A DNA stretch of 60,059 nucleotides from a virus (lineage: Duplodnaviria; Caudoviricetes): IMG/VR virus record IMGVR_UViG_3300042465_001922, positions 1 through 60,059 of that record; one strand, 5' to 3'. Position numbers and translations under genes: made by a program. Numbering within the stretch: position 1 is the stretch's first letter; the number at the start of each line of letters is the position of its first letter. Shown piece after piece: positions 5,824 through 54,939 of the stretch. The notes under the pieces are model-generated. The model made no database searches and was not told the origin of the DNA. It saw only the letters and a program-made list of their open reading frames with translations.

Positions 5824-7323
5824 TTAGTAATAAGCAGCCCGGCGCTGCTTGAAGTATTGAATGTCGTCCTCTTCGTCAAGAGTAGTACGTACATAACCAC
5901 CCTGCCTAAATCGCATTAAGGCAAGGGAGACCGAGTCCACATAGTCATCATGGTCCCCATTAGGGAAACTTGCAACTTCCTCCACCACTTCCTCGGCCCA
6001 GTTAGTGTTTGGAACCCATATACGACTTGAAGCAAATAGATCAGATACAGCATTTAATCGCGTGATCTTATCGTTGCCTTTGGTTGGGGTAAACTCCTGA
6101 ACGGGAACGCCCATAGATCTAAGCTCATAGATGAGGGGAGCGCCAGAGGCCTTCTTTTCTATGATGAGTCCGTCGGGGTTCCATTCCTTGTACTGTTCTA
6201 ACACCCGTTTTTTCAATTCCGGGAACTCAAGCCGGTCCCGAAAGGCGTTTAACAGTATTAAATTTGCCTGTTCTTTGCCCGTATCGTCCGGGTGGTAGAA
6301 GACCCCCCAGGTAGTACAGGCCGAATAGTCGGCTCGGGTGTTCTTTTCGAACGCTGTATCCCAGGCTTGGATGATCATATCGACCGGAGGCGGGGAATCG
6401 TTCTCCCAAATCTGCCACCACTCCCGTTTTACGATGGCTGAACCCTCTGAGGTAGGGTCTTGTTGGTACTGAGCCTGCCATTTTGGGTGGGGAAGTTCCT
6501 CTTTTAGGGACGATAACTCACTCAAACTCCAAAATTCCGGCCATAAAGGCTTTCCAGAGGGCAAAATTGCTGGAAATTCAACAACATCCCACTCATCCCC
6601 GCCCCGCTGAGCGCTGGCTTTAAGGACTTGGCCAGTTAAATCGCGCTTTCCCCACCGGGTCATCACGATAACAATTGACCCACCCGGCTGAAGACGCTGC
6701 CTTGGGCCAGAGGAGTACCACTCGTAGACCTTATCAAAGACCCCGGGGTCTCCGGCGGCTAGGGCTGCTTCTTGTTCTGAGTGCGGGTCGTCGATAATAA
6801 GGAGGTCAGCTCCCTTACCAGTGACGGTACCGCCAACGCCAATAGCAAAATACTCACCATTAGCATTAGTAGACCACCGCCCAGCAGCCTTAGAGTCGTG
6901 TCGCAGGGATACGTTCGGAAATACTTTTGCATAAGTCTCCCCATCTACTAGGTTACGGACCTTCCGGCCAAAGCCGACCGCTAGTTCGGCGGTATTAGAG
7001 GTCTGGATAATCTTCTTCCCAGGATACTTCCCCAGGAACCAGGCCGGCAATAAGTAAGAAGCAAACTCCGACTTGGTGTGCCGGGGTGGCATATTGATAA
7101 TAAGTCTCTTTAGCTTTCCGGCAGCTATGTCCTCAAACTTCTTGGCCATGACCGCATGATGGCGGCCGTGGATAAAGCTGGGCCACATGGCCTTAACAAA
7201 GTTCATAAAAGAGTTCTGCGCTTTTTCCCGCATCAGGGCGTCCTGATACTGCTGAGCCATAGACAGTATCTCGTCTCGCTGGGCGTCCGGCAGATTGGAA
7301 ATAAAGTCTAAAACCTTACTCAA
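5824..7323 (-). CDS. terL: Terminase large subunit
   Basis: Walker A-like INMPPRHTKS, Walker B LLIIDDPH, VMTRW coupling motif, RNase H-like nuclease QAWDTA...IEKKASG...HDDYVDS. Confidence 0.95.
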   Translation of the reverse strand: MSKVLDFISNLPDAQRDEILSMAQQYQDALMREKAQNSFMNFVKAMWPSFIHGRHHAVMAKKFEDIAAGKLKRLIINMPPRHTKSEFASYLLPAWFLGKYPGKKIIQTSNTAELAVGFGRKVRNLVDGETYAKVFPNVSLRHDSKAAGRWSTNANGEYFAIGVGGTVTGKGADLLIIDDPHSEQEAALAAGDPGVFDKVYEWYSSGPRQRLQPGGSIVIVMTRWGKRDLTGQVLKASAQRGGDEWDVVEFPAILPSGKPLWPEFWSLSELSSLKEELPHPKWQAQYQQDPTSEGSAIVKREWWQIWENDSPPPVDMIIQAWDTAFEKNTRADYSACTTWGVFYHPDDTGKEQANLILLNAFRDRLEFPELKKRVLEQYKEWNPDGLIIEKKASGAPLIYELRSMGVPVQEFTPTKGNDKITRLNAVSDLFASSRIWVPNTNWAEEVVEEVASFPNGDHDDYVDSVSLALMRFRQGGYVRTTLDEEDDIQYFKQRRAAYY

Positions 7324-7561
7324 TCTTATGAACCCTCATATAAGACGGACGCACTGTCCTCGCCCGGCCGGGGATTCCTTTACACACCCCCAGGCGGATC
7401 AGCATCTGGATCTTCCTAGATACATTCCCCCTACCTCTTTCACCAGTGATAAACATAATCTCGTCTATAGACGGGGCGTAGCCATACTTCTTCCACCACT
7501 CATCTATCACCATGTAGGTCTGCTTTAAGGCCGGAGTCATTTCAGGAACTTTTGTACCCAT
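7316..7561 (-). CDS. LexA N-terminal-like winged-helix DNA-binding protein (no peptidase domain)
   Basis: MTPALKQTYMVIDEWWKKYGYAPSIDEIM...GNVSRKIQMLIRLGVCKGIPGRARTV resembles the LexA DNA-binding domain; start may be 7540. Confidence 0.65.
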   Translation of the reverse strand: MGTKVPEMTPALKQTYMVIDEWWKKYGYAPSIDEIMFITGERGRGNVSRKIQMLIRLGVCKGIPGRARTVRPSYMRVHKIE

Positions 7562-8537: not shown

Positions 8538-8729
8538 TTATTGAGCGCAAGCTGAGCTGTTTCGCTTCGCTCTTTTCCCCCGCGCCTTCGATTGATTCGG
8601 GCTATCAATTTCTGATTTCGATTAGAAAATAAAATGGCACCATTCGGTTGATAGTCAACCAAAGCATGAGATGATTCGTTTTATCAGTAACCGCCCCGGA
8701 CGGTTTCCGGGATACCGCTAGGAGATTTT

Positions 8730-8933
8730 ATGACCAAACACATCAACCTTGATGATTTATTCGAAGAGTGCCTTCAGGATACCCGCGAAGCTCTCCGCAG
8801 AGGGGAGATCAGCGATTACAAGGCGAACATTGATCGGCTGGAGATATTCCTTCAGAGCAACCCCGGCGACCCTTATACGCTCGCTTGGTCTGCTGATGGC
8901 TTTATGACCCCCGCTGAGAATTTCATTGACTAA
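8730..8933 (+). CDS. Hypothetical early protein
   Basis: 67 aa, CGCTAGGAG RBS. Confidence 0.75.
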   Translation: MTKHINLDDLFEECLQDTREALRRGEISDYKANIDRLEIFLQSNPGDPYTLAWSADGFMTPAENFID

Positions 8934-8981
8934 CCCGCCGCCGGGGCGGTTCCCCGGTTCAACCGCTAGGAGATCAAAACC

Positions 8982-9173
8982 ATGAATTATCTAATCACCC
9001 ACAGCAAAGGCCCTCAGGGTTGGTCAGAGGCCCGAATTGCACCCGTATCGAGTAAACGTCTTAGCCCCTTCGAACGCGAATGGCTGGACTGGATGCTCGC
9101 CAACGGTTCGACCGTAGTCACCATAGGCGACACCATGCTAGAGATCAAGACGCCCCAAGAAGTGAACGACTAA
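8982..9173 (+). CDS. Hypothetical early protein
   Basis: 63 aa, CGCTAGGAG RBS. Confidence 0.75.
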   Translation: MNYLITHSKGPQGWSEARIAPVSSKRLSPFEREWLDWMLANGSTVVTIGDTMLEIKTPQEVND

Positions 9174-9226
9174 CTAACCGCCGGGGGTTCGCCCCCGGTT
9201 TTTCTCACCGCTAGGAGAACCACACC

Positions 9227-9658
9227 ATGTCAACATTTATCGAATTTGAAGGCGGCCTTGTAATCGAGACCGACAACCCTGAATTTCACCCCGAGGGGAA
9301 AAGACTCACCCGGAAAGCGGGCCAGCAAAAACGCCGGGAATACTGCCGCGCCCAATTGCTAAAGATTCTCAAACCCGGCGACACCGTTTACACCGTCCTG
9401 CGCCATGTATCCGCCTCGGGTATGTCTCGCCGCATTGACCTTTACACGATCAAAGACGGACGGATGCAGTATCTCTCCGGGTATGCCGCCGGACTGATGG
9501 ACCGGAAACTATCCGACAAGCCGGGAATCGTGGTCGGCGGGTGCGGTATGGATATGGGCTTCCACCTTGTTTACTGCCTGTCCTATTCCCTTTTCAAAGA
9601 CTCCCCGCCGGAGGGCCACAGGGACGGAGGGTATGCCCTGCGGCATGAGTGGATTTAA
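9227..9658 (+). CDS. Hypothetical early protein
   Basis: 143 aa, GDTVYTVLRHVSASGMSRRI...GGCGMDMGFHLVY; CGCTAGGAG RBS. Confidence 0.8.
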   Translation: MSTFIEFEGGLVIETDNPEFHPEGKRLTRKAGQQKRREYCRAQLLKILKPGDTVYTVLRHVSASGMSRRIDLYTIKDGRMQYLSGYAAGLMDRKLSDKPGIVVGGCGMDMGFHLVYCLSYSLFKDSPPEGHRDGGYALRHEWI

Positions 9659-9733
9659 GCCCTTGACCTGATGCCCTGCGGGTCAGGGTATCGGGGCGCG
9701 GACTTCGCGTCTCAACCGCTAGGAGGTAAACAA

Positions 9734-9922
9734 GTGAACAGGGTCAAGGTTTTTGACAAGGGTTCCGCAAGTATTGAACGGATATTCCCCTCGGGGATGT
9801 ATCTCGTCCAATGCTACACGGGCCACGAGCTGCACGACAAAATCCGCTGCGACACATACCGCGCCGCAATGGATTATTTCCGGGCATTTTGCCGGATTGC
9901 TAAAAATGGGGGTGCGCGATGA
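9734..9922 (+). CDS. Hypothetical early protein
   Basis: Start moved to GTG 9734, which follows the CGCTAGGAG RBS (track start was 9671). Confidence 0.7.
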   Translation: MNRVKVFDKGSASIERIFPSGMYLVQCYTGHELHDKIRCDTYRAAMDYFRAFCRIAKNGGAR

Positions 9923-10101
9923 TTTACCAATACAAGCCACAACCGAACGACCCGCAAGCCCAGACTCTCCCCTACGGTCTGCGCTTGAAGGTCATCCCGG
10001 GAACCCGCGAGGGCTACCCGCAAAGCACCGTGCAGGTGAAGGATACCGCCGGGAATCCCCTCGGCCGGGTGCTGTTTTCCTCGTTGGAGGTGCTGAGATG
10101 A
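9919..10101 (+). CDS. Hypothetical protein
   Basis: 60 aa, ATGA overlap with the upstream stop. Confidence 0.6.
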   Translation: MIYQYKPQPNDPQAQTLPYGLRLKVIPGTREGYPQSTVQVKDTAGNPLGRVLFSSLEVLR

Positions 10102-10271
10102 AGAGCGGCGCGAAATATCAAATAGTCGAGCTTCCCGATGAGGTTTCGATAGTGGACACCGAGAGCAATCGGCCCGTGGTTTCTTACCCTTACGAGGACA
10201 CCGCCGAGCTGTTTCATCAAACTATGAACGCCACCCGCGAATGCTCACGACTTAACGGGGGCCAGCCATGA
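10098..10271 (+). CDS. Hypothetical protein
   Basis: MKSGAKYQIVELPDE..., GGAGG RBS, ATGA overlap; 3' part of track ORF 9753..10271. Confidence 0.65.
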   Translation: MKSGAKYQIVELPDEVSIVDTESNRPVVSYPYEDTAELFHQTMNATRECSRLNGGQP

Positions 10272-10405
10272 ACCGACGAGACCTTGAGGAAATGCGCCGC
10301 CGATTGGCAGAGAGACAAGCCGCAGAGGCCGCCGACCATCCGGCGATGCTGATCGTGAGCGCAGTCGCGTTCATTTTTTTAATCGTTGTCATGAGTGCAA
10401 TTTGA
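10268..10405 (+). CDS. Small membrane protein
   Basis: Manual ORF, 45 aa, C-terminal hydrophobic AMLIVSAVAFIFLIVVMSAI, ATGA overlap. Confidence 0.55.
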   Translation: MNRRDLEEMRRRLAERQAAEAADHPAMLIVSAVAFIFLIVVMSAI

Positions 10406-10416
10406 CGGAGAGAGAA

Positions 10417-10902
10417 ATGGAAATTTTAGAAATTACGGTTTATTCGTTTGATGAGCTGGAGGACAAGGCCAAAGAGAAAGCCCGGGAATGGTTGCGAAGA
10501 GACCTCGATTATCCGTGGTTCGATGAGGCCATCGGTTCGATTCGGGCCTTCGTTCGACACTTCGGGGCCGAGGTTACGGATTGGTCACTGGGGTCAGGAT
10601 CGGGCAGAGACTATATCAAAACTGATATAACCCCGGCGCATTTCCGAGGCGTAAAGCTCAAGGACATCCACCGCGACTATATGCCCACGGGCTACGCCTT
10701 AGACGCCGATTTGTGGGGCGAATTCTATCGGGTGTTCGAGAAAACCGGGGACGCGAAGTATGCCTTCGAGCAAGCCCTCGAAGAAGCCATCATCGGGATA
10801 CAGAGAGATATCGACTATCAGTATTCGGACGAGTGTGTAGATGAGACCCTGAGAATCAATGAGTATCGGTTCACCGAAACCGGAAAATTTTTTAACCGCT
10901 AG
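10417..10902 (+). CDS. Hypothetical phage protein (VYSFDEL..AKEKAREW type)
   Basis: 161 aa from ATG 10417 with GGAG RBS; its TAG stop lies inside the next CGCTAGGAG motif. Confidence 0.75.
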   Translation: MEILEITVYSFDELEDKAKEKAREWLRRDLDYPWFDEAIGSIRAFVRHFGAEVTDWSLGSGSGRDYIKTDITPAHFRGVKLKDIHRDYMPTGYALDADLWGEFYRVFEKTGDAKYAFEQALEEAIIGIQRDIDYQYSDECVDETLRINEYRFTETGKFFNR

Positions 10903-10911
10903 GAGGAAATT

Positions 10912-11265
10912 ATGGGATTGTGCGTATCTGTTTATAGATGGAGTTTGGGTGACTGCACCAATGGCGGGATTTCCGCCGGGGTCTCTGATCTGTGCGTGGT
11001 GAATGTTCCGGGGCCGTTTTCGCCATCCGAGGATTGTCCGGCTGCGGAGCTAGTGCCTGGACCCGTTAAAGGGCAGGCGATTATCAAGCCGATCGGAGAC
11101 CAACCCGGAATGATCGGGCCTATGTTCGGCGGTAATTACGCCAGCAGCAGCGATTCACGATTCAATGAGGCTGTTCGCAAGATAACGGGCCAGCTCACTT
11201 ACGGAGCTGTTGCAATTCACGATCGGTTTGAGACCCAGGAAGAGTATGACGCACTAAGCCGCTGA
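10912..11265 (+). CDS. Hypothetical phage protein
   Basis: 117 aa, DCTNGGIS...GPMFGGNY..SSDSRF...AIHDRFE; CGCTAGGAG RBS. Confidence 0.75.
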   Translation: MGLCVSVYRWSLGDCTNGGISAGVSDLCVVNVPGPFSPSEDCPAAELVPGPVKGQAIIKPIGDQPGMIGPMFGGNYASSSDSRFNEAVRKITGQLTYGAVAIHDRFETQEEYDALSR

Positions 11266-11332
11266 CCTTCTGCCCCTGGGAGACCGGGGGCAGCGGGGCG
11301 GGGGCTTCCCGTCTTATCGCTAGGAGGTTTTT

Positions 11333-15731: not shown

Positions 15732-15749
15732 CTTCTCTCCTAGCGTTTG

Positions 15750-16806: not shown

Positions 16807-17301
16807 ATGACTACCATTGCAGCCAAATTTTCTACCATGGAGATAGCCGCCGATAGTATGGTTAGCGGGGAGGATTCCTTCTACATGGTGTCAAAATTGC
16901 GGCATGGCAAAAATTCTATCTACGGCGCATGTGGTGACTGGGACAAAGTACTGAAGGCGTTCCAGCTGATTGAGACAGGCGGCAAAGAATGGGAGTCAGA
17001 CTTAGACGTAACCATCCTTGAGCTGAGGACAGACGGGATATGGATCTACGAATCCACGATCATTCCTGTCAGGCTGAAGAATGATTACTGGGCAGTGGGG
17101 ACGGGGGCAAACTTTGCAATAACCGCGATGAGGCTGGGTAACAGTCCAGCTACAGCGGTATCAATAGCGGCGGAGTTTGATCCTTTTACGCGCCATCCAA
17201 TCGAATCATACAAACTAGAGGTCAATGATGGTAAGAAGAGTACCCGAAGAGGAATTCATCCGGGTGTGGCAAAGGTTAGAAAGCCCAACGCTAGTAGCTA
17301 A
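16807..17301 (+). CDS. HslV/proteasome-beta-like Ntn-hydrolase
   Basis: M-T-T-I-A start (N-terminal Thr nucleophile), IAADS, K at about position 36, WAVGTGA.FA, FDPFT; start moved from 16621 to ATG 16807. Confidence 0.75.
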   Translation: MTTIAAKFSTMEIAADSMVSGEDSFYMVSKLRHGKNSIYGACGDWDKVLKAFQLIETGGKEWESDLDVTILELRTDGIWIYESTIIPVRLKNDYWAVGTGANFAITAMRLGNSPATAVSIAAEFDPFTRHPIESYKLEVNDGKKSTRRGIHPGVAKVRKPNASS

Positions 17302-18166
17302 AACTTTTGGAATGTCTGTCAGGGGAGCGCAGAAAAGACGAAAAGAATTAGAAGAAAAAGGAGTTGTGCTTAACACGCTAGACCCCAGAGCTAAGCTAGA
17401 TAAGTTTCCAAGAACCTTTGTACCAGAAGACCGTAGAGTAATTAAGCACGAAGTAAAGAACGGTCATATCTTTATAGCTTCAGACGCTCACTACTGGCCC
17501 AACGAGGAAACGGTAGCTCATAAGGCTTTTGTCAAGCTTATCAGTGAGATGAAGCCGCTAACCGTGTGCCTCAATGGTGACGTTTTCGATGGGGCCAGGA
17601 TCTCCAGGCACGAACCACTGATGGGGACAAACCCACCCACCGCTAAGCAAGAGATCGAGGCATGCGTTGACCGGCTGCATGAAATCAAAAACGCATCCAA
17701 GAACGCACGGACATTCTGGACGTTCGGTAACCATGATGTGCGGCTCCATAGGTATATCGCCATGAATGCCCCGGAGCTGACCGATGCTATGAATCTTTTT
17801 GATTACTTCCCAGGCTGGCTTACCTGCTGGCGACTTGATGTGAATGATGTGATCATCAAGCATCGCTGGCATAACGGCATCCACGCCAACTACAACAACA
17901 CTCTGAAGTCCGGCCGAAGCATTGTGACCGGGCATCTACACAAGCTCATGGCCACCCCTTGGGCGGACTATAACGGCCGGCGCTGGGGCATAGACTCCGG
18001 CACCTTGTCAGAACCGGAGAGCGAGAAATTTTCGTACACCGAAATGAATCCGGTACCGTGGGCAAGCGGCTTTGTGGTCCTCACGATACTAGATGGCAAG
18101 CTGATCACGCCAGAGTTTTGTGAGGTGCTTGACGGGGTTGCGTACTTCCGAGGCAAGCCGGTATGA
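17228..18166 (+). CDS. Calcineurin-like metallophosphoesterase with N-terminal HTH
   Basis: SDAH, LNGDVFD, GNHD, KH, TGHLH motifs. Confidence 0.88.
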   Translation: MVRRVPEEEFIRVWQRLESPTLVAKTFGMSVRGAQKRRKELEEKGVVLNTLDPRAKLDKFPRTFVPEDRRVIKHEVKNGHIFIASDAHYWPNEETVAHKAFVKLISEMKPLTVCLNGDVFDGARISRHEPLMGTNPPTAKQEIEACVDRLHEIKNASKNARTFWTFGNHDVRLHRYIAMNAPELTDAMNLFDYFPGWLTCWRLDVNDVIIKHRWHNGIHANYNNTLKSGRSIVTGHLHKLMATPWADYNGRRWGIDSGTLSEPESEKFSYTEMNPVPWASGFVVLTILDGKLITPEFCEVLDGVAYFRGKPV

Positions 18167-18306
18167 GTTCATGGCTCATCATTGCGGTGGGTCTGGTGTA
18201 TGCCTATATAGCGGTGGATAACTTTCTGAAGGGCAACATATCTATGGGGGTAGTGTTTGCCGGATACGCCTTTAGCAACTACGGGCTGTACAGATTATCA
18301 GTGTGA
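18163..18306 (+). CDS. Small two-helix membrane protein
   Basis: Manual 47-aa ORF MSSWLIIAVGLVYAYIAVDNFLKGNISMGVVFAGYAFSNYGLYRLSV, ATGA overlap. Confidence 0.65.
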   Translation: MSSWLIIAVGLVYAYIAVDNFLKGNISMGVVFAGYAFSNYGLYRLSV

Positions 18307-18390
18307 GGTGGGGCAGGGGTGTGTCAACAACCGAACCCCACGTTGCAGGAATCCTGTTATTCCCTGCCCCAAGAAAAGATAACACGGGAT

Positions 18391-18425
18391 AAAAAAACCC
18401 CCAGAGTTTTTGACCCTGGGGGTTT
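18391..18425 (-). terminator. Intrinsic terminator
   Basis: Minus strand CCCCCAGGG-TCAAAAA-CTCTGGGGG followed by T7. Confidence 0.85.
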
Positions 18426-18492
18426 CACCAAAGAGGTGTGTCCATACATCGGCCGCTAGGAGACTTTTGGACTGCCGGTGTGTATGCCGGCA
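18391..18492 (-). ncRNA. Candidate trans-acting antisense small RNA (anti-CGCTAGGAG)
   Basis: Own promoter, three hairpins plus terminator, no ORF; the middle loop carries UCUCCUAGCGG. Confidence 0.7.
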
Positions 18493-18497
18493 AAGGG

Positions 18498-18527
18498 TTT
18501 ATACCACCCCCAAAACTGTTACGTCAA
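18498..18527 (-). promoter_or_regulatory. Sigma-70-type promoter for the candidate sRNA
   Basis: TTGACG (18527-18522), 18 nt, TATAAA (18503-18498) with TGn extension. Confidence 0.7.
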
Positions 18528-18770
18528 GGGCCTGTAAAGGGGTATTGTGAAGTAGCACTCAGACAGCCAGGAATCTTCCGGCTCAGTGAGGCTTAGCTTG
18601 ACCGGCTGCCCGGTGGTCCGATCCAAGATCATCCAGGCATCTGGGAACCGCTTAAAAAATAGCTGAGCTGCCCGGTTCTCCACCAGACAGGCGAAGTCCA
18701 GGAGTTCATCCTGGGACACCCCTTGTATCCCTACGGATACAGCCATATCTAGGACTTCGTCTTCGGTCAT
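18519..18770 (-). CDS. Hypothetical protein
   Basis: 83 aa, ATGA overlap, last gene of the leftward operon. Confidence 0.65.
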   Translation of the reverse strand: MTEDEVLDMAVSVGIQGVSQDELLDFACLVENRAAQLFFKRFPDAWMILDRTTGQPVKLSLTEPEDSWLSECYFTIPLYRPLT

Positions 18771-19405
18771 TCAGATCTTCCGTCGTAATCAAAGGTGCTT
18801 GTATCTCCCAGCCGCCACTTGGCAAACTGCTCAACCCGGTACTTTCTTTTGGCCACTATGAAATCTGGTTTCTTCATAACCTCTGGGTTAAAAGCAGGTT
18901 CAAAAAATCGGCAGCGGTTATTAGGCTGCAAGGCAAACTGGCCGTTGTCAAGCTTTAAAAGATTGTAGCTCTTATGCTCATCGACGGTCTCGGACAGGGT
19001 GAAGTCCGGGATCCTGGGGTCTGGGTTACAGGTGTCCAGGGTAAACATGTATTCCCCCGCATGAGCCTGGCGATCCTTGCCAAAGAACTCAGCCCGTAGT
19101 CCCTTGAGGAACGGTTTATCAACCACGGTTACGTAGTAGCTCAGCGCATCCCAGATCTCTAATACATCCAGCGGCAGCGGCTTATCGTAGACCGGCATCC
19201 AAGAAAAGGCATGGATCGGCAGCTTGTCATACAAAGCGCCGTACTCAGGAAGATAAGTCTCAAACCTGAACGCCTCGCCACGAATGGCTTTAACGCTGAC
19301 CCAGATCCCGGGGATCAGTGGCGTGTCAGCCGTGCAAGTAAAGTCGTACAAATACTCAGGCCGAACCCAGACTTTAACCGGGGGGAGTGGGCAGACAAAG
19401 TTCAA
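18767..19405 (-). CDS. Hypothetical phage protein
   Basis: LPPVKVWVRPEYLYD...GALYDKLPIHAF...DNGQFALQPNNR; start moved to TTG 19405 (GGAG RBS, overlaps the upstream stop). Confidence 0.75.
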   Translation of the reverse strand: MNFVCPLPPVKVWVRPEYLYDFTCTADTPLIPGIWVSVKAIRGEAFRFETYLPEYGALYDKLPIHAFSWMPVYDKPLPLDVLEIWDALSYYVTVVDKPFLKGLRAEFFGKDRQAHAGEYMFTLDTCNPDPRIPDFTLSETVDEHKSYNLLKLDNGQFALQPNNRCRFFEPAFNPEVMKKPDFIVAKRKYRVEQFAKWRLGDTSTFDYDGRSE

Positions 19406-19653
19406 CTGTTCTTCTCCTTTAGTTTGGCTTCGATGGCACGAAAATACTTGTAGGTATTTACCGTATTGCATGATTTCACAGCGACATCTATTTCCTCATC
19501 CGTCAGCCCAACCCATTCACGCTCAGGCTGCGCTAGTCGGTCACGCAGGGCAGTTTCTGCTTGTAGGTGTCGTTCCATCATTTTCATTGGGATAAATGAA
19601 TAAGCATTTTTAAGCGCTCTCAACGCCATTTGCATTAGTTCACGGTCTGTCAT
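19402..19653 (-). CDS. Hypothetical phage protein (REWVGLTDEEI type)
   Basis: 83 aa MTDRELMQMAL...REWVGLTDEEI...AIEAKLKEKN; GGAGG RBS. Confidence 0.75.
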   Translation of the reverse strand: MTDRELMQMALRALKNAYSFIPMKMMERHLQAETALRDRLAQPEREWVGLTDEEIDVAVKSCNTVNTYKYFRAIEAKLKEKNS

Positions 19654-19940
19654 TTCACCTCCAGGTGTTCGTTATCAAAGAGCCACCCGACTGTCTTACG
19701 GTGGGCCATCTCCCAAATATCAACCCGGTCTTCCTTGCTCATCTTGGACCCCTGATCTAAGTCGAAATGGCACCGATAGCACAGGGCTGCGATCCGATAG
19801 TCATGCGCCTTGATCGAGCGGCCCTTACCATCCCGCAACTGATTGGAATGGGCGGCCACCACGGTCCCGTCGCTAGCGCCACAAAGCTGGCACGGAGATT
19901 CCCGGACTATCTCCAAGAGCTTCTTGTTTCGGTAATTCAT
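19650..19940 (-). CDS. DUF1364/YbcO-like putative HNH-fold nuclease
   Basis: CQLCG...TVVAAHSN...K..D...AALCYRCH..LD. Confidence 0.7.
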   Translation of the reverse strand: MNYRNKKLLEIVRESPCQLCGASDGTVVAAHSNQLRDGKGRSIKAHDYRIAALCYRCHFDLDQGSKMSKEDRVDIWEMAHRKTVGWLFDNEHLEVK

Positions 19941-20136
19941 TTATCAATCCCCTGACTTCAGACAATGTTTGATGGGCTTTGTATAAAGTCTCTAGGCTGG
20001 CGATCCTGTCGTCTTCTAACATCTGTAGCATCTGAGCAGCCTTGAGCATCTCAATCCGCTCTTCCTCAAACTTCATGTGCTTAGCGTTGGCCTTGAGCCA
20101 GACCGCTAGTCTGTACGCCTCATTCATGTTTAGCAC
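19873..20136 (-). CDS. Hypothetical protein
   Basis: 87 aa helical ORF in operon; start uncertain. Confidence 0.5.
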   Translation of the reverse strand: MLNMNEAYRLAVWLKANAKHMKFEEERIEMLKAAQMLQMLEDDRIASLETLYKAHQTLSEVRGLINELPKQEALGDSPGISVPALWR

Positions 20137-20910: not shown

Positions 20911-21627
20911 TCATAGCCCCGTTAACCTTCCTTCAAATGTGTATGTTCCGGTATGGTTCAGCATGATCCAGGGTGCTAGGTAGACCTTGCCACCGTGCTG
21001 CCGCCACAGCTTGCAAAATGAGTTGTCCTCTGAGTACAGCTTGGTGTTCTCTACCAATAGCCTGAAGAAGTTCTTGATCGGGCGGTCCTTGTGATCTGGG
21101 TGCCAGTACTCATCCACCAAAGGGGCCAGCTCCTCAAACACCCGGCGCTTGATCAGCATGAACCCGGTGGCTACGGTCTCCACCTCCAAGGGGTTCTCAA
21201 ACTTATGCTCTCCCTCTGTACCGGGGATGATGGCAAACGTCGGACGACCAGTGTGGTATTTCAACTGATCCACTGGGACGCCTGCCTTGACCGCCTTCTG
21301 AACCTCCTCCCAATCAATCATCTTCTTGGGATAGTTACCCGCGATCAGATCCTTGTTCTCCTCGATGAGGCTGAACACATGCTCCGGCTTAAACGATACG
21401 TCTGCGTCAATGAACATAAGGTGGGTGCAGTCCGTCTCAGCCAAGAAGTAATGAGCTAGCAGGTTACGGGCATTCACAATCAGGGCATCGTTGTTGACCA
21501 CCCGGATCTTGAGCGGCACGTTGTAATTCCGGCAGGCCACAGACAGATCAGACAGAGCCAGGGCGTAGGGTGAATAACACATCCCGCCGTACATCGGTGT
21601 AGCTACAAACAGTTTAGTACCTTTCAT
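20911..21627 (-). CDS. GT-A-fold glycosyltransferase-like protein
   Basis: LFVATPMYGG...ARN...THLMFIDADV (DxD)...ATGFMLIKR...SEDNSFC...LNHTG. Confidence 0.8.
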   Translation of the reverse strand: MKGTKLFVATPMYGGMCYSPYALALSDLSVACRNYNVPLKIRVVNNDALIVNARNLLAHYFLAETDCTHLMFIDADVSFKPEHVFSLIEENKDLIAGNYPKKMIDWEEVQKAVKAGVPVDQLKYHTGRPTFAIIPGTEGEHKFENPLEVETVATGFMLIKRRVFEELAPLVDEYWHPDHKDRPIKNFFRLLVENTKLYSEDNSFCKLWRQHGGKVYLAPWIMLNHTGTYTFEGRLTGL

Positions 21628-22187
21628 CTTTTCCTCACAATGGTTTGCGCTCCCCAGCCGACTAGCTGGGCTTCCTCTGCGAAGATGTTGACAAAAGCAT
21701 CAATGGCCATCTTGGGGCGATGCAGGATATCTCGTGAGTCTCCCCACATATAGTCATCAAAGACCATCAGACCACCTTGACGCAGCAGCGGCCACGCCAT
21801 ACAAGCATCGGTCAGAACATCCTTCGCCACATGAGAGCCGTCGATGTAGATGAAATCCATCTCCGGAGCGCCTGTAATAATGGTGGCAAGCGCTCGGTAA
21901 GACTCATCTTTTAACTTGTAAATTTTTTGCTCACTACGCTTGGCCTTTTTTACGTTGGTTTCAAACCTAGTTTCAACCTGATCAAAGTCTATGCCTTGGT
22001 GATCTTCGCCGCCGGCCCAGGTATCCACGCAGTACAAGATTCCATCATCGGTCAGCATGTTCTCAATGATCCACACAGCTGACTGACCTTCATATGATCC
22101 AATCTCCAAGACCCTGCCAGCCCTAGGGAACTGGGACCAGCCGTGGGCGGTACGTTTGAACCAGTCGTTAGTGAACTCGTAGCTCAT
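21624..22187 (-). CDS. Class I SAM-dependent methyltransferase (Methyltransf_24-like)
   Basis: VLEIGSYEGQS, CVDTW, DFIYIDGSH, GGLMVFDDY. Confidence 0.85.
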   Translation of the reverse strand: MSYEFTNDWFKRTAHGWSQFPRAGRVLEIGSYEGQSAVWIIENMLTDDGILYCVDTWAGGEDHQGIDFDQVETRFETNVKKAKRSEQKIYKLKDESYRALATIITGAPEMDFIYIDGSHVAKDVLTDACMAWPLLRQGGLMVFDDYMWGDSRDILHRPKMAIDAFVNIFAEEAQLVGWGAQTIVRKR

Positions 22188-22525
22188 ACAGAGCCTCTGT
22201 TATTGTTGTTTCTGTTCGCGCATGGCCATACTGCCTGAAGCGATTCTCTGACCAACGTATATCCCTGCATGTGTCGCCTAGAAGGATTGGAATTTAGGTA
22301 CTGTTTAACTATGTCGTTAATCTGTCCAGCAGTAATCCCAGACTCTGTCTTTGGACAGAAAGCAACATGCACGTAAGCATCATAAATACCGATGACGTAT
22401 CCAAGACCGTACATTCTTTCCATAACATCCGTCGAGGTCAGTCTTTGATGCAAATCATTTCCTGACCAGAACTCCGCCCTAGCTAAAGCCGGAATCATTA
22501 GTAGTGCAATCAGTATCTTTCTCAT
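22184..22525 (-). CDS. Secreted Rap1a-like immunity protein
   Basis: Signal peptide ending ARA; SGNDL...GYVIGIYD...FCP...ITAGQINDIVKQYL..NP..RH...L...WPC pattern. Confidence 0.7.
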   Translation of the reverse strand: MRKILIALLMIPALARAEFWSGNDLHQRLTSTDVMERMYGLGYVIGIYDAYVHVAFCPKTESGITAGQINDIVKQYLNSNPSRRHMQGYTLVRESLQAVWPCANRNNNNRGSV

Positions 22526-25575: not shown

Positions 25576-26460
25576 TTATGCCTCACTAGTTTTTTTCTCC
25601 TGATGGTTACGCCATTGCTGGCAGTAAACAGAAACTGGGCAGAAGTTTTCACATCGGGTGCGACTGCCCGGACGCACTTCGATCTCGTAAGCTTTTCCTA
25701 TCTTGGCAAGCACCTCCAAGGCTTCTTGCCGTGTGTCGTGAACCGACCTAGCCCGCGCACCGCCAATCTTTTTGACGGCATAGACCGTTGGTCTCTCCCA
25801 CATTTCCTCTGAGGTGCAGTCCGGCAGATCCCCATCGGTCTCTAACTCAAACTCGCAATTTGCATGTAAATGGATTCTTTCCTTGATAAATTCCTCGGCA
25901 TAGGATTTCTCCCAAATTGGGATACCAATCTCTTTGACCGGAGCCTGGGGGTAGTCAGGGTTCCTGCCCGCCTCCCTGCGATTCCAGTCCCGGATGATGG
26001 CTACTATGCCTAGGGAGCTGACCGGGGTTTTCTTGACCGTCTCTACAAGCCAGGCGTAGATGTTGAGCTGCTGCTCCCACTCGATCTTCTCGTTCATCAC
26101 TGACCAGGCCGATACGGTCTTGTAGTCTCGGACGGCGATACTATCGCCGCTCAATATCTGTAGATCTATGGCGCCGGAGATCTTCCAGCCATCGACCTCG
26201 GTATGCAGCCGCTCCTCAACAATGTGATTCTCATCCTGGCCATGCTCCAGAACCTTATGGACAGCCGAGCCAAAGATCGACCAGACCATGTCGGCCACAT
26301 CCTGTTCTAGCTCGTCTTCAAACTTCTTGGTCAGGGCTACGATCTTGGGGCTGTTGATCAGCTGGGTCACGGATAGGTTGGCCTTCCCCTTGCTGTAGGT
26401 GGGCCGGTCCAGCACGTTCACAAACGTCTGGGGGATGTTGTGCTTGTTGGTAAATTTCAT
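25576..26460 (-). CDS. PD-(D/E)XK exonuclease (RecB/Cas4-like)
   Basis: FGSAVHKVLE, ISGAIDL, VRDYKT, QLNIYAWL, C-terminal RCENFCPVSVYC. Confidence 0.85.
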   Translation of the reverse strand: MKFTNKHNIPQTFVNVLDRPTYSKGKANLSVTQLINSPKIVALTKKFEDELEQDVADMVWSIFGSAVHKVLEHGQDENHIVEERLHTEVDGWKISGAIDLQILSGDSIAVRDYKTVSAWSVMNEKIEWEQQLNIYAWLVETVKKTPVSSLGIVAIIRDWNRREAGRNPDYPQAPVKEIGIPIWEKSYAEEFIKERIHLHANCEFELETDGDLPDCTSEEMWERPTVYAVKKIGGARARSVHDTRQEALEVLAKIGKAYEIEVRPGSRTRCENFCPVSVYCQQWRNHQEKKTSEA

Positions 26461-26921: not shown

Positions 26922-26944
26922 GTTTTACTCCTAGCGATGGCGTC

Positions 26945-40699: not shown

Positions 40700-42601
40700 T
40701 CATCTCCTCCCATCAGGACGAATATCGATTCGGGGTGCGCCAAGCTGCCAGGTGGTATTCAGATCACTGGAAGATACTTTGAAGATCATCTGCCGGGCGC
40801 GGACCCGGGTGTAGATGATGTTAGTGAACGCTTCAATTGGCACCGTAGCCGTCCTGGTTACCGTGGCAAAGTTGGTGCCTCCGGCGGATGCTGGGCTGGT
40901 AAAGCCTGATCCTGAACCCTTCATAGGCTGGAGCGTGAATACCGCCTGTGGGTTGGAGGCACTAGACCCTTCAAAGGTGATGTCCGGCAGCATCCTCCAG
41001 ATAAAGCCAAAGTTATGGCCATCGTCAATGTCAAACTCTGAGGAGGAGATATAGGCCTCGATAGCCGCCGGTGTACCGGTTTCGTTGTCATTAACACCAA
41101 ACTCGTGATAGACCAGGTTATTAGTGTAAGTGGCCGCTATCGGGTAGTCCTGTAGGCCGCTATCTAGCCATGCCGTCCTGGCCAGAGTTCCGTAGTACCA
41201 GGCTTTTTCAAGGTAGTTATAGATCACATACTGGTCAATGGTGCTAGATCCAGCGGTGGGGTAGAACCACCAAACCTCTGTAAATCCCTCACTTGTCCCA
41301 GCAAAAATTTGATCAGTCTGCTGAAGGTTAATGTCATTAAAGATGAACCGGCGCAGATCGCATGGCAGAGTCTGAACCCGGCCATCGTAGTAGTAGAACT
41401 TGTCGATACCCATCCAGTAAACAATACCGGAGGCAAAAGCCACGGCATTTGGGCTTTGGATGGAGATGTTATCTGCCAGAAGCGTGGCTCCCCAAACACC
41501 GCCTTGTGGGCCAAGGTATTGAAGAGAGTAAAAAGCAGAGTCAGTAATTACGATGATCTCTTGCCGGGACTGGATTACGGCAACAATTGTTGATCCACTG
41601 GAAAGTCTTAGACTGCCAGCCTGATTGGTAGCACTTGGCGTCCAATTTACCGCCGACTCCTGATCTGACCACCGAATCAGCATTGGGTCTAGGGTTCCAG
41701 AGCCGATGTCGTTTGCTCCAAAAGCCATAGCAAATCGGTAAACGTCGGATACAAATACCTTATTTACCGTAGTCGGAACCCCAGAAGCCCCTCCAAGACT
41801 GGACAAAAGCACACCCCGATTGCTAGTTCCAGAGGATGAATCCCAGTAATAAATCTGGCTTCCACGGTTAGCAAAAATTAGATCTTCACCAAAGTTAGCC
41901 TGACTCCAGAGACGGATCAGCTCGGGCGTCGTGCCGCCTTGACCCCAGTTTCCTTGGCCCCATGAGCCTGCGCCCCACCCTGTAAACGGAACCTGTGTTG
42001 CAGCGCCCACATGAATTTCATAAGCACCAACCACAGATGCCCCACCGTTTCCAGAATCATTCGCATTCGCAGTTACAGCCGCTCCTGTCGTTGGGTTCTT
42101 GGCTACGATGGTGTAGGTATTGGCAGTCAGAACCTGGGCAATCTGGTAGTTCTGCTCAAGGACTGCCTCGGTGATATTTCCCCCGACCCCAAGGCCGTTG
42201 GCATCTACCCCAGAGAAAGTCACAAAATCGCCTGTATAGGCTCCGTGGTTGTTGTCCGTAACTGTGATGGTCGAGCTGCCATTAGAGGCTGCAAAGGTCA
42301 CCTCGCCAGCCGCAGTAGTGGATCGAATGGGGGTGATGTCATAGTAGGCAGCGCCTTGCTCTATGTAGAACTTAAGGTTAGTACCCACTCCGATCAGGTT
42401 TGCCCCTCCCAGGGTCACCCAGTTCCACAGCGACCGGCACACCCCCAGGAATCGGCTACTGGAGATCTGCGCCCACCCACCAATCTTCTCAGGGCTACCC
42501 TGACGGAAACGGACTTTGTCGCATTCGTACCAGCCACCTTCGGTGGTATACCGGGTGTTTTCTTTGTTCACACCTGGTTTAAACAGTATCTTTTTTAACA
42601 T
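40700..42601 (-). CDS. Tail nozzle/stabilisation protein (P22 gp10-like beta-propeller)
   Basis: 633 aa, KVRFRQGSPEKIGGW, IRWSDQE...W, EVWWFYP, ARTAWLD. Confidence 0.7.
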   Translation of the reverse strand: MLKKILFKPGVNKENTRYTTEGGWYECDKVRFRQGSPEKIGGWAQISSSRFLGVCRSLWNWVTLGGANLIGVGTNLKFYIEQGAAYYDITPIRSTTAAGEVTFAASNGSSTITVTDNNHGAYTGDFVTFSGVDANGLGVGGNITEAVLEQNYQIAQVLTANTYTIVAKNPTTGAAVTANANDSGNGGASVVGAYEIHVGAATQVPFTGWGAGSWGQGNWGQGGTTPELIRLWSQANFGEDLIFANRGSQIYYWDSSSGTSNRGVLLSSLGGASGVPTTVNKVFVSDVYRFAMAFGANDIGSGTLDPMLIRWSDQESAVNWTPSATNQAGSLRLSSGSTIVAVIQSRQEIIVITDSAFYSLQYLGPQGGVWGATLLADNISIQSPNAVAFASGIVYWMGIDKFYYYDGRVQTLPCDLRRFIFNDINLQQTDQIFAGTSEGFTEVWWFYPTAGSSTIDQYVIYNYLEKAWYYGTLARTAWLDSGLQDYPIAATYTNNLVYHEFGVNDNETGTPAAIEAYISSSEFDIDDGHNFGFIWRMLPDITFEGSSASNPQAVFTLQPMKGSGSGFTSPASAGGTNFATVTRTATVPIEAFTNIIYTRVRARQMIFKVSSSDLNTTWQLGAPRIDIRPDGRR

Positions 42602-44457: not shown

Positions 44458-44720
44458 CGCTTAGACCTTTCTTCAAGGAGTTTTAAACGGACCTGAAGGT
44501 CGTGAATATCTTTGTAAATCTCTTCTTTGAGCTTGTGCCGGGCTTCGGCTGAAATTGGGGAATCAGTTGGGGTGCCGCTGGGGGTAATCAGGGCTGGCAT
44601 CTTAGACTTGATGTCTACCAGATCGTGTTGGATGTTAGTTACGGCGCTGATCATCCAAGTAATTGCAGCCACAATCACCGGAAACGCCATCTGAATTACT
44701 TTTGTCCAGTCCATCACCAC
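44454..44720 (-). CDS. Membrane-anchored lysis-region protein
   Basis: N-terminal TM helix plus coiled coil. Confidence 0.6.
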   Translation of the reverse strand: MVMDWTKVIQMAFPVIVAAITWMISAVTNIQHDLVDIKSKMPALITPSGTPTDSPISAEARHKLKEEIYKDIHDLQVRLKLLEERSKR

Positions 44721-45169
44721 ACCTTTGTCATCTTAAGAACCGCATAAATAATCAAAGACAAAACCCCCAGCACCAGCCATTCGTTCCGTGTTGCCTGTCG
44801 GTCAGAGTCGTACTCCTTTTGCAACTCCTTGCGCTCCTTCCGAAGCTTGACTTCTAATGCCTGAACCTCATCTATTGCCCGTTTGCCAAACTCTTTCTCA
44901 ATCTGTTTAAAGGCGTCCTCTTTGTTGCGCCGCAGGTTGTACAGCACCCGATATTCGTTGATGGCGTCCACATACATCATGTCGCCCCGGCGTTGAACTT
45001 CCTGTTGTTTCCTGCGCCACGCCACACGGGCGCGAGCTTCTTCGTCCAGAAAAGCATTGACTTCTTTGGCTGTCTCTTTGATGTCCCGTCCGGCTTTGAT
45101 CGCCTCGCGGATTCCACCTAAAGCGGTTTGAACGACCTTGGATGGGTCGGCTGGATCTGGCAATGACAT
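44714..45169 (-). CDS. Coiled-coil protein with C-terminal TM helix
   Basis: 151 aa. Confidence 0.6.
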   Translation of the reverse strand: MSLPDPADPSKVVQTALGGIREAIKAGRDIKETAKEVNAFLDEEARARVAWRRKQQEVQRRGDMMYVDAINEYRVLYNLRRNKEDAFKQIEKEFGKRAIDEVQALEVKLRKERKELQKEYDSDRQATRNEWLVLGVLSLIIYAVLKMTKVW

Positions 45170-54588: not shown

Positions 54589-54939
54589 CTACGTAATGTT
54601 GATCGTTACCTGTCCTACACCACCAAACCCTATAACCTGGCCTATTGCAAAAGTATCTCCAGGCTCTATCGGTCCAATCTGCAACTGTAAGGTCAAAGAA
54701 CGGCTCTGGGGGTAACCGGTGAAGTCTGGACGGGGATTGCGCAGCGCCTGGGGGTCATCAACCGGGTACATTCCCAGCTGGAGCTGCGGCTGATCCGGGT
54801 TCCAACACTCCGGGCAGGCCAGGATATTTACGTTCTTTGTCTTAATTACGAGCTGCGCTAACTCCTTTAGTTTGTACCGGAAGCCACAAATGTCGCATTC
54901 CGATATTGCCCATTTACCACTAGCGAACCTGTTACCCAT
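54589..54939 (-). CDS. Zinc-ribbon protein
   Basis: ECDICGF...ACPECWNPDQPQL...DPQALRNPRPD. Confidence 0.7.
   Translation of the reverse strand: MGNRFASGKWAISECDICGFRYKLKELAQLVIKTKNVNILACPECWNPDQPQLQLGMYPVDDPQALRNPRPDFTGYPQSRSLTLQLQIGPIEPGDTFAIGQVIGFGGVGQVTINIT

Follow-up and report, generated by a model that had tools for sequence, protein, structure and literature searches.

A predicted phage small RNA whose hairpin loop mirrors a ribosome-binding-site tag shared by eight genes

Why should a nine-letter word that serves as the ribosome-binding site (RBS) of eight phage genes occur once more in the same genome, in the opposite sense and away from gene starts? The question is raised by IMG/VR virus record IMGVR_UViG_3300042465_001922 from an uncultured phage, the whole of which (60,059 bp, 96% complete by CheckV) was analysed here and is referred to as the window. 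The additional copy lies in the second hairpin of a predicted small RNA (sRNA) of about 100 nt on the minus strand, at positions 18388–18492. A preliminary description of this locus had proposed that the loop of the RNA is antisense to the eight tagged ribosome sites. We confirm the observation, and each computational check proposed there that was run spoke for the interpretation, which thus has the support that sequence data can give. That the unit is a genuine sRNA gene is very probable, and we put at about 0.6 the probability that it acts as an sRNA derived from an operon 3' end, repressing the tagged ribosome sites by base pairing.

A shared ribosome-site tag and its mirror copy

The word CGCTAGGAG is present in nine exact copies in the window, against 0.28 expected (100 dinucleotide shuffles, maximum 2). 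Copies with one mismatch number only eight, which is about the chance level (17 matches in total against 9.7 expected), and because these show no excess the tag is an all-or-none word. The RBS motif that the preliminary description had placed in front of eight genes was recovered at those places: eight of the nine copies stand 5–9 nt before ATG, GTG or TTG starts, all eight of them in the sense orientation.

8716–8724 (+): tag, 5 nt before ATG 8730 (67 aa)
8964–8972 (+): tag, 9 nt before ATG 8982 (63 aa)
9209–9217 (+): tag, 9 nt before ATG 9227 (143 aa)
9717–9725 (+): tag, 8 nt before GTG 9734 (62 aa)
10897–10905 (+): tag, 6 nt before ATG 10912 (117 aa)
11318–11326 (+): tag, 6 nt before ATG 11333 (191 aa)
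15737–15745 (-): tag, 5 nt before ATG 15731, a helix-turn-helix (HTH)-like protein of 289 aa, first gene of the replication operon
26928–26936 (-): tag, 6 nt before TTG 26921, DUF5843, first gene of the recombination operon that ends in the RNA

The tagged cistrons are those with an untranslated gap in front of them, their downstream neighbours being translationally coupled and untagged. Within the small-gene cluster between 8.7 and 11.9 kb, each cistron that is initiated independently has the tag as its RBS, and the first cistrons of the replication and recombination operons carry it as well. All of these belong to the non-structural genes (8.7–27 kb), and the terminase/structural part has none. 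The ninth copy, at 18454–18462, is the opposite-sense mirror and is read from the minus-strand RNA unit. The possibility that the word acts as a DNA-level operator was considered and rejected, all eight other copies being sense-oriented at RBS distance.

Two related phage records, G001 and G002, were compared with the window (G000). G001 is 92–96% identical to it around the RNA unit, while G002, a 20-kb fragment, shows approximately 76% nucleotide identity in the replication genes. The tag at 9717 is exact in G001 despite different flanks, spacing and start codon, and the tag in the leader of the replication operon is kept in G002, where its flanks are only about half identical. G002 lacks the DUF5843 gene; its recombination operon begins with a nuclease gene, the leader of which is still tagged, as TGCTAGGAG. 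The tag or its 8-nt core was also seen in G002 at L084 17520–17528 (+) and 18569–18576 (-), inside open reading frames (ORFs) of 2424 and 490 aa and not at starts; these copies are probably due to chance (about 0.15 expected per 9-mer in 20 kb). In the comparison loci, CGCTAGGAG was not found in 57 of 67; of the ten that contain it, eight are excerpts of the window and the other two are L009 and L034. An enriched NNNNAGGAG word was found in none of the more distant relatives G003–G007.

GC-rich hairpins lie directly before most of the six tags within 8690–11320 of the window. Some of these are followed by U runs and resemble terminators (e.g. before 9209), and the hairpin preceding tag 8964 shows a compensatory G-C to A-U change in G001.

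The RNA unit and its conservation

The features of the unit, all of them on the minus strand, are as follows.

18522–18527 (-): -35 hexamer TTGACG, abutting the TAA stop of an 83-aa ORF
18498–18506 (-): extended -10, TGgTATAAA (TG 18506–18505, TATAAA 18503–18498), separated from the -35 by an 18-nt spacer
18388–18492 (-): predicted sRNA of about 100 nt, its 5' end placed about 7 nt past the -10 and its 3' end in U7 at 18397–18391
18473–18492 (-): hairpin 1, UGCCGG/CCGGCA, loop CAUACACA
18440–18472 (-): hairpin 2, GUCCA/UGGAC, presenting the anti-tag
18454–18462 (-): anti-tag CUCCUAGCG, the exact complement of the RBS tag, in the centre of hairpin 2
18426–18438 (-): hairpin 3, CACC/GGUG
18391–18425 (-): intrinsic terminator, a 13-bp stem (18425–18395) with loop CAAAA, then U7

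The minus-strand promoter of the preliminary description, TTGACG and TATAAA at a distance of 18 nt with an extended -10, is present as given there. Matches of at least 5/6 in both promoter hexamers were found at only seven places on the two strands of the genome, and this is the only one with the TG. An automatic promoter scan omits it, as that scan demands a T at the last -10 position. The fold of 18492–18388 (-) has an energy of -47.2 kcal/mol (z = -5.0), which was equalled by none of 200 shuffles, and comprises four hairpins. It bears out hairpins 1, 2 and 3 as first described; the terminator, which had been taken to be hairpin 3 followed by the U tract, was wrongly assigned and is a fourth hairpin of 13 bp (18425–18395) followed by U7. 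The U7 tract exists on the minus strand only, and the energy of the terminator hairpin on the minus and plus strands, respectively, is -23.0 and -18.9 kcal/mol in the window and -20.7 and -13.7 kcal/mol in G001.

Since the -35 hexamer abuts the stop codon of the 83-aa ORF, the unit forms the 3' end of the leftward operon, and the earlier picture of a free-standing intergenic gene between convergent operons has to be given up. The layout matches that of an sRNA derived from a 3' untranslated region (3' UTR), with the promoter at the end of the last ORF and the terminator of the operon shared. A search of Rfam yielded no family at its gathering score over the whole window, so that the check by cmscan suggested earlier returned no known family. 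Around the site (18250–18650, 401 nt, E ≤ 10) there were eight sub-threshold matches, driven by terminator hairpins, the best being NsiR1 with 22 bits against a cut-off of 39; the c4 antisense RNA, which we take to be Rfam accession RF01695, was not among them.

Two side observations concern the surroundings of the terminator. Its stem word (ACCCCCAG / CTGGGGGT) recurs, often as inverted pairs, at 7386–7394, 25944–25952 and 42441–42449, with further places at 44578–44585, 44763–44770 and 54706–54755; a single design of terminator hairpin has apparently been used repeatedly by the phage. In addition, the end of the rightward genes is separated from the sRNA terminator by a structured element of about 60 nt (18311–18371) that has outer arms GGGGCAGGG / CCCTGCCCC and inner hairpins. 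It is found again beside the terminator in G002 (L084 2796–2870), where the arms are changed and yet pair (GGAGGGG/CCCCTCC), and where it is kept though the rightward peptidase and phosphoesterase genes are absent. In run X19, some contigs depart from the window sequence at 18308, 18325 and 18371, at or near the arms of this element.

The body of the RNA differs between the window and G001 by three substitutions in 105 nt. A substitution in the terminator of G001 turns an A-U pair into G-U on the minus strand and into A·C on the plus strand. In its promoter (TTGACG, TGtTATAAC) 11 of the 12 hexamer positions are identical and the TG is kept, with only 7 of 18 spacer positions identical (11 changes); the corresponding figures for G002 (TTGACA, TATAAC) are 10/12 and 6/18. 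All three records have a spacer of 18 nt.

The divergence of the spacer in G001 belongs to a patch at 18495–18521 with 14 differences in 27 nt, amid DNA that is 93–95% identical, which spans the promoter spacer and the first bases past the -10. Through a 1-nt indel upstream, the G001 ORF runs seven codons further, to a TAA inside the -10 box (90 versus 83 aa). The unrelated 178-aa ORF of G002 also ends at a TAA inside the -10 box.

Comparison at the level of blastn misses such RNAs. The homologue in the decisive relative, G002, went unnoticed by this program and was found by reading the syntenic spacer downstream of the ferredoxin-like gene, where TTGACA and TATAAC, 18 nt apart, precede four hairpins and U7, an order like that of the window; it was then confirmed by covariance model R1. 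This model, built from G000 and G001 alone and used to search 70 sources (712 kb), matched G001 with 134 bits, G002 with 41 bits (E 7e-6) and nothing else. In the R1 alignment, which was fitted to the structure of the model, 97.6% of the cells are paired and 8 of 28 pairs are changed on both sides; controls in which the partners were slid by 1–3 columns gave 31–50% paired cells and 0–1 such pairs. Two of the six pairs of hairpin 1 are changed on both sides in G002, all six still being paired. In hairpin 2 all five stem pairs have been replaced by compensatory changes (CCAUGA/UCAUGG), and the pairs of hairpin 3 are invariant in all three records. The loop of hairpin 1 in G002 (L084 2960–2981 (-)) reads CCUCCU, a second anti-Shine-Dalgarno stretch, where the window has CAUACACA.

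The genes upstream of the unit differ, with one of 83 aa in the window against two of 73 and 178 aa in G002, and the unit stays at the end of the operon. Plus-strand genes that run into the terminator were sought in G002 and none was convincing. From this context, the unit is to be assigned to the end of the leftward operon, with the minus strand as the relevant one.

The search for further relatives was made at several levels. With blastn, positions 18380–18540 matched only G001 among 59 loci, the same DNA gave only one 36-nt terminator-like match in G003–G012, and positions 17000–20000 matched none of 50,697 phage records. Among viral contigs, the 83-aa protein found only G001, and three DNA patterns found only G001, or G001 and G002. 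Neither the 83-aa protein nor a stem-anchored DNA pattern had a match in metagenome contigs, and a search of genome contigs for relatives was likewise without a match. We regard this absence of further relatives as weak evidence. In contigs of four lake-water DNA runs there was no listed difference in 18310–18544, a block that includes flanking sequence and so says nothing specific on constraint.

The mirror copy had been described as the only full copy of the motif that is not placed as an RBS. This stands with one caveat, namely that on the plus strand a TTG follows after 4 nt and opens a frame of 27 codons. It is therefore conceivable that the ninth copy is a working plus-strand RBS for a micro-ORF of 23–27 codons, reached by transcripts that cross the weak plus-strand face of the terminator, with the minus-strand RNA being at most its cis-antisense partner. 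Each record has such a start, namely TTG at a distance of 4 nt in the window (27 codons) and in G001 (23 codons), and ATG at 5 nt in G002 (23 codons). This tells against an sRNA with the tagged genes as targets; the chance of such a start and frame is, by a rough estimate, 0.1 per lineage. However, the peptides are unrelated, only Q at position 9 being common to their first nine residues besides the initial M, and the frame differs relative to the conserved -10 box. The substitutions in the variable patch of G001 show no third-position bias, and the changes between the lineages are compensatory for RNA helices and not for protein. Nor is a plus-strand promoter visible; the site lies behind a terminator, and in G002 there is no plus-strand operon leading in. 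A micro-ORF as the reason for the ninth copy thus appears very improbable. A type I toxin-antitoxin system was also considered and rejected, the plus-strand micro-ORF peptides being neither hydrophobic nor conserved.

Predicted pairing with the tagged sites, proposed function and genomic setting

Complements of the anti-tag are numerous in the genome, whereas every other segment of the RNA has scattered ones at most. The preliminary description had reported 15 nt of pairing with the leader of gene 8730, which is correct: the duplex (8715–8729) has 15 contiguous pairs, one of them G-U, and a net energy of about -15 kcal/mol. At all eight sites contiguous duplexes of 10–16 bp can form, with -8.3 to -15.2 kcal/mol net of opening both partners. 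The existence of many dispersed RBS targets, as originally suggested, is a reading of sequence complementarity.

Hairpin 2 has a single conserved block, the core CUCCUAGC, which all three records share unchanged; the stem and both loop flanks are different in G002. The preliminary description had also asked whether the loop co-varies with the RBS motif in relatives, and had named motif changes unmatched in the loop as a refutation; at one position in G002 the opposite holds. The ninth base of the loop is changed there from G to A, and the tag of the first gene in the RNA-ending operon from C to U, so that loop CUCCUAGCA faces operon leader UGCUAGGAG. This leader forms a duplex of 13 bp (-22.1 kcal/mol) with its cognate RNA versus 10 bp (-16.1 kcal/mol) with the window RNA; the operon leader of the window forms 10 bp (-16.5 kcal/mol) with its own RNA versus 8 bp (-12.6 kcal/mol) with that of G002.

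These findings bear on the suggestion that the unit is a mere structured operon 3' end, a terminator region with an unused promoter, where the tag mirror is present as a relic or by-product devoid of any regulatory role. The position of the unit directly after the last ORF and its use of the operon terminator would agree with this. On the other hand, the 8-nt core has been kept exactly while all five stem pairs and the loop flanks were replaced, the loop has changed together with a target, and the promoter hexamers have been kept within a diverged spacer in two relatives. Moreover, the probability that a given 9-mer occurs by chance in some 130 nt, on both strands, is about 0.001. We consider a relic of this kind quite unlikely.

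Pairing with the tagged ribosome sites is, in our view, the most likely function of the RNA. The unit shows four features of trans-acting base-pairing sRNAs, namely a predicted promoter, an intrinsic terminator on the same strand, a conserved fold with compensatory changes and a conserved seed complementary to the putative targets. The RNA would be transcribed from a sigma-70-type promoter of its own, in overlap with the end of the last ORF, and would also form the tail of the operon mRNA. Hairpin 2 would present CUCCUAGC(G), the complement of the private tag (C)GCUAGGAG. By pairing with 10–16 nt over the Shine-Dalgarno (SD) sequence, the RNA would block the binding of the 30S subunit and possibly open the mRNA to degradation, so that all tagged genes would be translated less at the same time. 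The bases GCUA would provide specificity beyond the generic GGAG. Since one of the tagged operons, the recombination operon, ends in this RNA, negative feedback on that operon would also result. As the RNA accumulates, the early non-structural programme would be shut down. The small-gene cluster and the functions in replication and recombination would probably be damped or shut off in a coordinated manner. An early-to-late switch, homeostasis or feedback on the operon that encodes the RNA, and immunity are all possible roles. Expression, repression and timing are here what we infer from the anatomy, conservation, covariation and complementarity of the unit.

The RNA might also be real and structured while its loop has another role: a mimic of the 16S anti-SD sequence, a protein-binding site, a means of protecting or activating mRNA, or simply part of a cis-only 3' UTR of the 8-kb operon mRNA. 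The loop core contains CUCCU, which pairs with any SD-like purine tract, and G002 offers a second such stretch in the CCUCCU of hairpin 1. The comparable hairpin loop of Cluster K mycobacteriophages, discussed below, stays pyrimidine-rich even where no perfect mirror is present, and the best G002 duplex is that with the leader of the same operon. The conserved block, however, runs four bases (AGC/UAGC) past the anti-SD core and matches the part of the tag that is not SD, and a promoter of its own, retained in three records, speaks for a distinct, potentially trans-acting transcript. Pairing over an SD sequence is, in established sRNA biology, most simply repressive. Another role of the loop is therefore held to be unlikely.

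Several points weigh against repression of the tagged sites by this RNA. The promoter and the 5' end of the RNA are predictions. The exact complementarity of the loop to the tag was correctly described, whereas its presentation as an open loop of 23 nt was not, as internal pairing is predicted (GUC:GAU, CC:GG) with UAGC as the apical loop; five of the nine anti-tag bases have an unpaired probability below 0.1, and opening would cost about 5–7 kcal/mol. The inner pairs are not kept in G002, and for this reason we regard the anti-tag loop as probably open in function. The co-change in G002 concerns a single position at one target, and the other tag visible in that record, before the HTH-like gene, keeps its C, which gives an A·C mismatch and leaves 9 bp. 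Because there are only three records, with two effective lineages, and because the alignment was model-fitted, the covariation of pairs is strong support and not proof. Finally, the more distant relatives G003–G007 have neither the RNA nor the tag, which in none of them is enriched, and this suggests that the tag/RNA system is young and narrow.

If repression of the tagged sites by the sRNA is true, one small RNA and a nine-letter RBS address would control a whole class of non-structural phage genes, a compact post-transcriptional programme switch that is unlike the transcription cascades of the textbooks.

The genes around the unit are arranged as follows.

27.4 kb round to 8.5 kb (-): structural and packaging genes, including terminase (5824–7323)
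8.7–12.4 kb, rightward: small-gene cluster without any family
from 15731, leftward (-): replication operon with HTH-like protein, helicase and Toprim
ending at 18306, rightward: pair of genes for an HslV-like peptidase and a metallophosphoesterase
26921 to 18519, leftward (-): recombination/accessory operon with DUF5843, PD-(D/E)XK nuclease, ERF, methyltransferase, ferredoxin-like protein and others
18519–18770 (-): last ORF of the recombination/accessory operon, 83 aa, no family, TAA stop at 18521–18519

The protein of the 83-aa ORF has only five near-identical proteins on record, the members of one 96%-identical cluster. Among the 40 window proteins scanned there were no members of integrase or repressor families, and no tRNA or tmRNA was found in the window. 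A 113-aa protein of the accessory operon (22184–22525 (-)) matches the Pfam family Rap1a, an immunity protein of a type VI secretion effector, with E 8e-15, above the cut-off. This is an unusual cargo for a phage accessory operon, and the methyltransferase gene (21624–22187) adjoins it. DNA near-identical to the window is contained in lake-water and freshwater metagenome runs; among the 20 runs listed there was no RNA run.

Comparison with known systems

The closest parallel is found in the mycobacteriophages of Cluster K. Their start-associated sequence (SAS) and its extended form (ESAS) are built on a 13-bp motif with AGGAG that stands 3–9 bp before 11–19 non-structural genes (PMC3203893, PMC11373665, PMC12699233). 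In the portions of these papers that deal with the motif, its role is given as unknown in 2011 (Pope et al. 2011, PMC3203893) and still so in 2024 (PMC11373665) and 2025 (PMC12699233). The same portions ask whether RNA or protein binds the motif and note a single reverse copy in K1 phages (PMC3203893, PMC11373665, PMC12699233); there, the reverse copy is not linked to an RNA hairpin.

The two systems are alike in having an exact, asymmetric AGGAG motif a few nucleotides before a subset of non-structural starts, in the sense orientation only and conserved beyond a canonical RBS, as far as the published accounts of SAS go. According to the same accounts an inverted repeat precedes about half of the SAS copies, to which the GC-rich hairpins of the window are alike in position only. 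Both have a single opposite-sense copy away from gene starts, at 18454–18462 in the window and correspondingly in phage Anaya. They differ in that the SAS motif is the 13-bp GGGATAGGAGCCC versus a 9-mer in the window, in that host and phage lineage are unrelated without any sequence homology, and in that the Cluster K hairpin comes without a defined unit of promoter and terminator. The relation is one of analogy, then, and not of membership.

In Anaya (JF704106) the reverse SAS lies in the 385-nt gap between gp96 and gp97 (L088 34847–34907), where it occupies the 10-nt apical loop of a hairpin in rightward RNA. The region of this gap matches 182 Cluster K records. Seven of the 18 pairs of the hairpin are compensatory in 12 diverse phages, and the G-U pairs are consistent with the plus strand; the loop is pyrimidine-rich in most subclusters sampled. 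Two further observations have to be set on the negative side of the balance: a perfect SAS mirror is present in only 6 of the 17 K phages sampled (loci L088–L104), and in Unicorn, where SAS occurs 12 times exactly, the loop mismatches it at two positions. As an analogy the Cluster K case may be called suggestive, not clean.

If true, the control proposed for the window would offer a concrete candidate function for the conserved start-associated motifs of mycobacteriophages. Private RBS tags with a cognate mirror RNA might even be a general and so far undescribed way in which phages address a regulon after transcription, one that would also explain the SAS of Cluster K and in which pairs of tag and loop would diverge among related phages as orthogonal, heteroimmune-like sets. 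So wide a generalization is speculative and, to our minds, somewhat doubtful. The orthogonal tag/RNA pairs that it predicts would be usable for synthetic multiplex translational control.

Among phage RNAs, the c4 RNA of P1 and P7 and the CI RNA of P4 are likewise small, and their loops pair around a phage RBS and block translation, in the summary that PMC12197685 gives of them. By that summary c4 acts on a single operon (icd-ant), is processed from the transcript of that operon and serves immunity (PMC12197685). The window RNA, in contrast, would have eight dispersed targets that are defined by a tag, and it is placed at the 3' end of an operon and not in a leader transcript, from which RNase P releases RNAs of the c4/CI family. 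Because no Rfam family matches it, it is not a member of the c4/CI family and is c4-like only in the pairing of a loop with an RBS.

Bacterial sRNAs of the RsaE/RoxS type have C-rich loops that pair with the SD region of many mRNAs, and DapZ and MicL are 3'-UTR-derived sRNAs with an internal promoter and a shared terminator. These are host RNAs acting on generic SD-like host sites, whereas the specificity of the window RNA would reside in a private four-base extension on phage genes. The Rfam search, in which no family matched, revealed no similarity of the window RNA to RNAs of the RsaE/RoxS or DapZ/MicL type. Full-text literature searches yielded no description of a phage sRNA that is directed against an RBS tag common to several genes. 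With the loop-to-RBS pairing of c4 RNA, the operon-end position of DapZ and MicL and an address of its own on the genes of the phage, the system proposed here is, without an Rfam homologue, a new form of antisense translation control.

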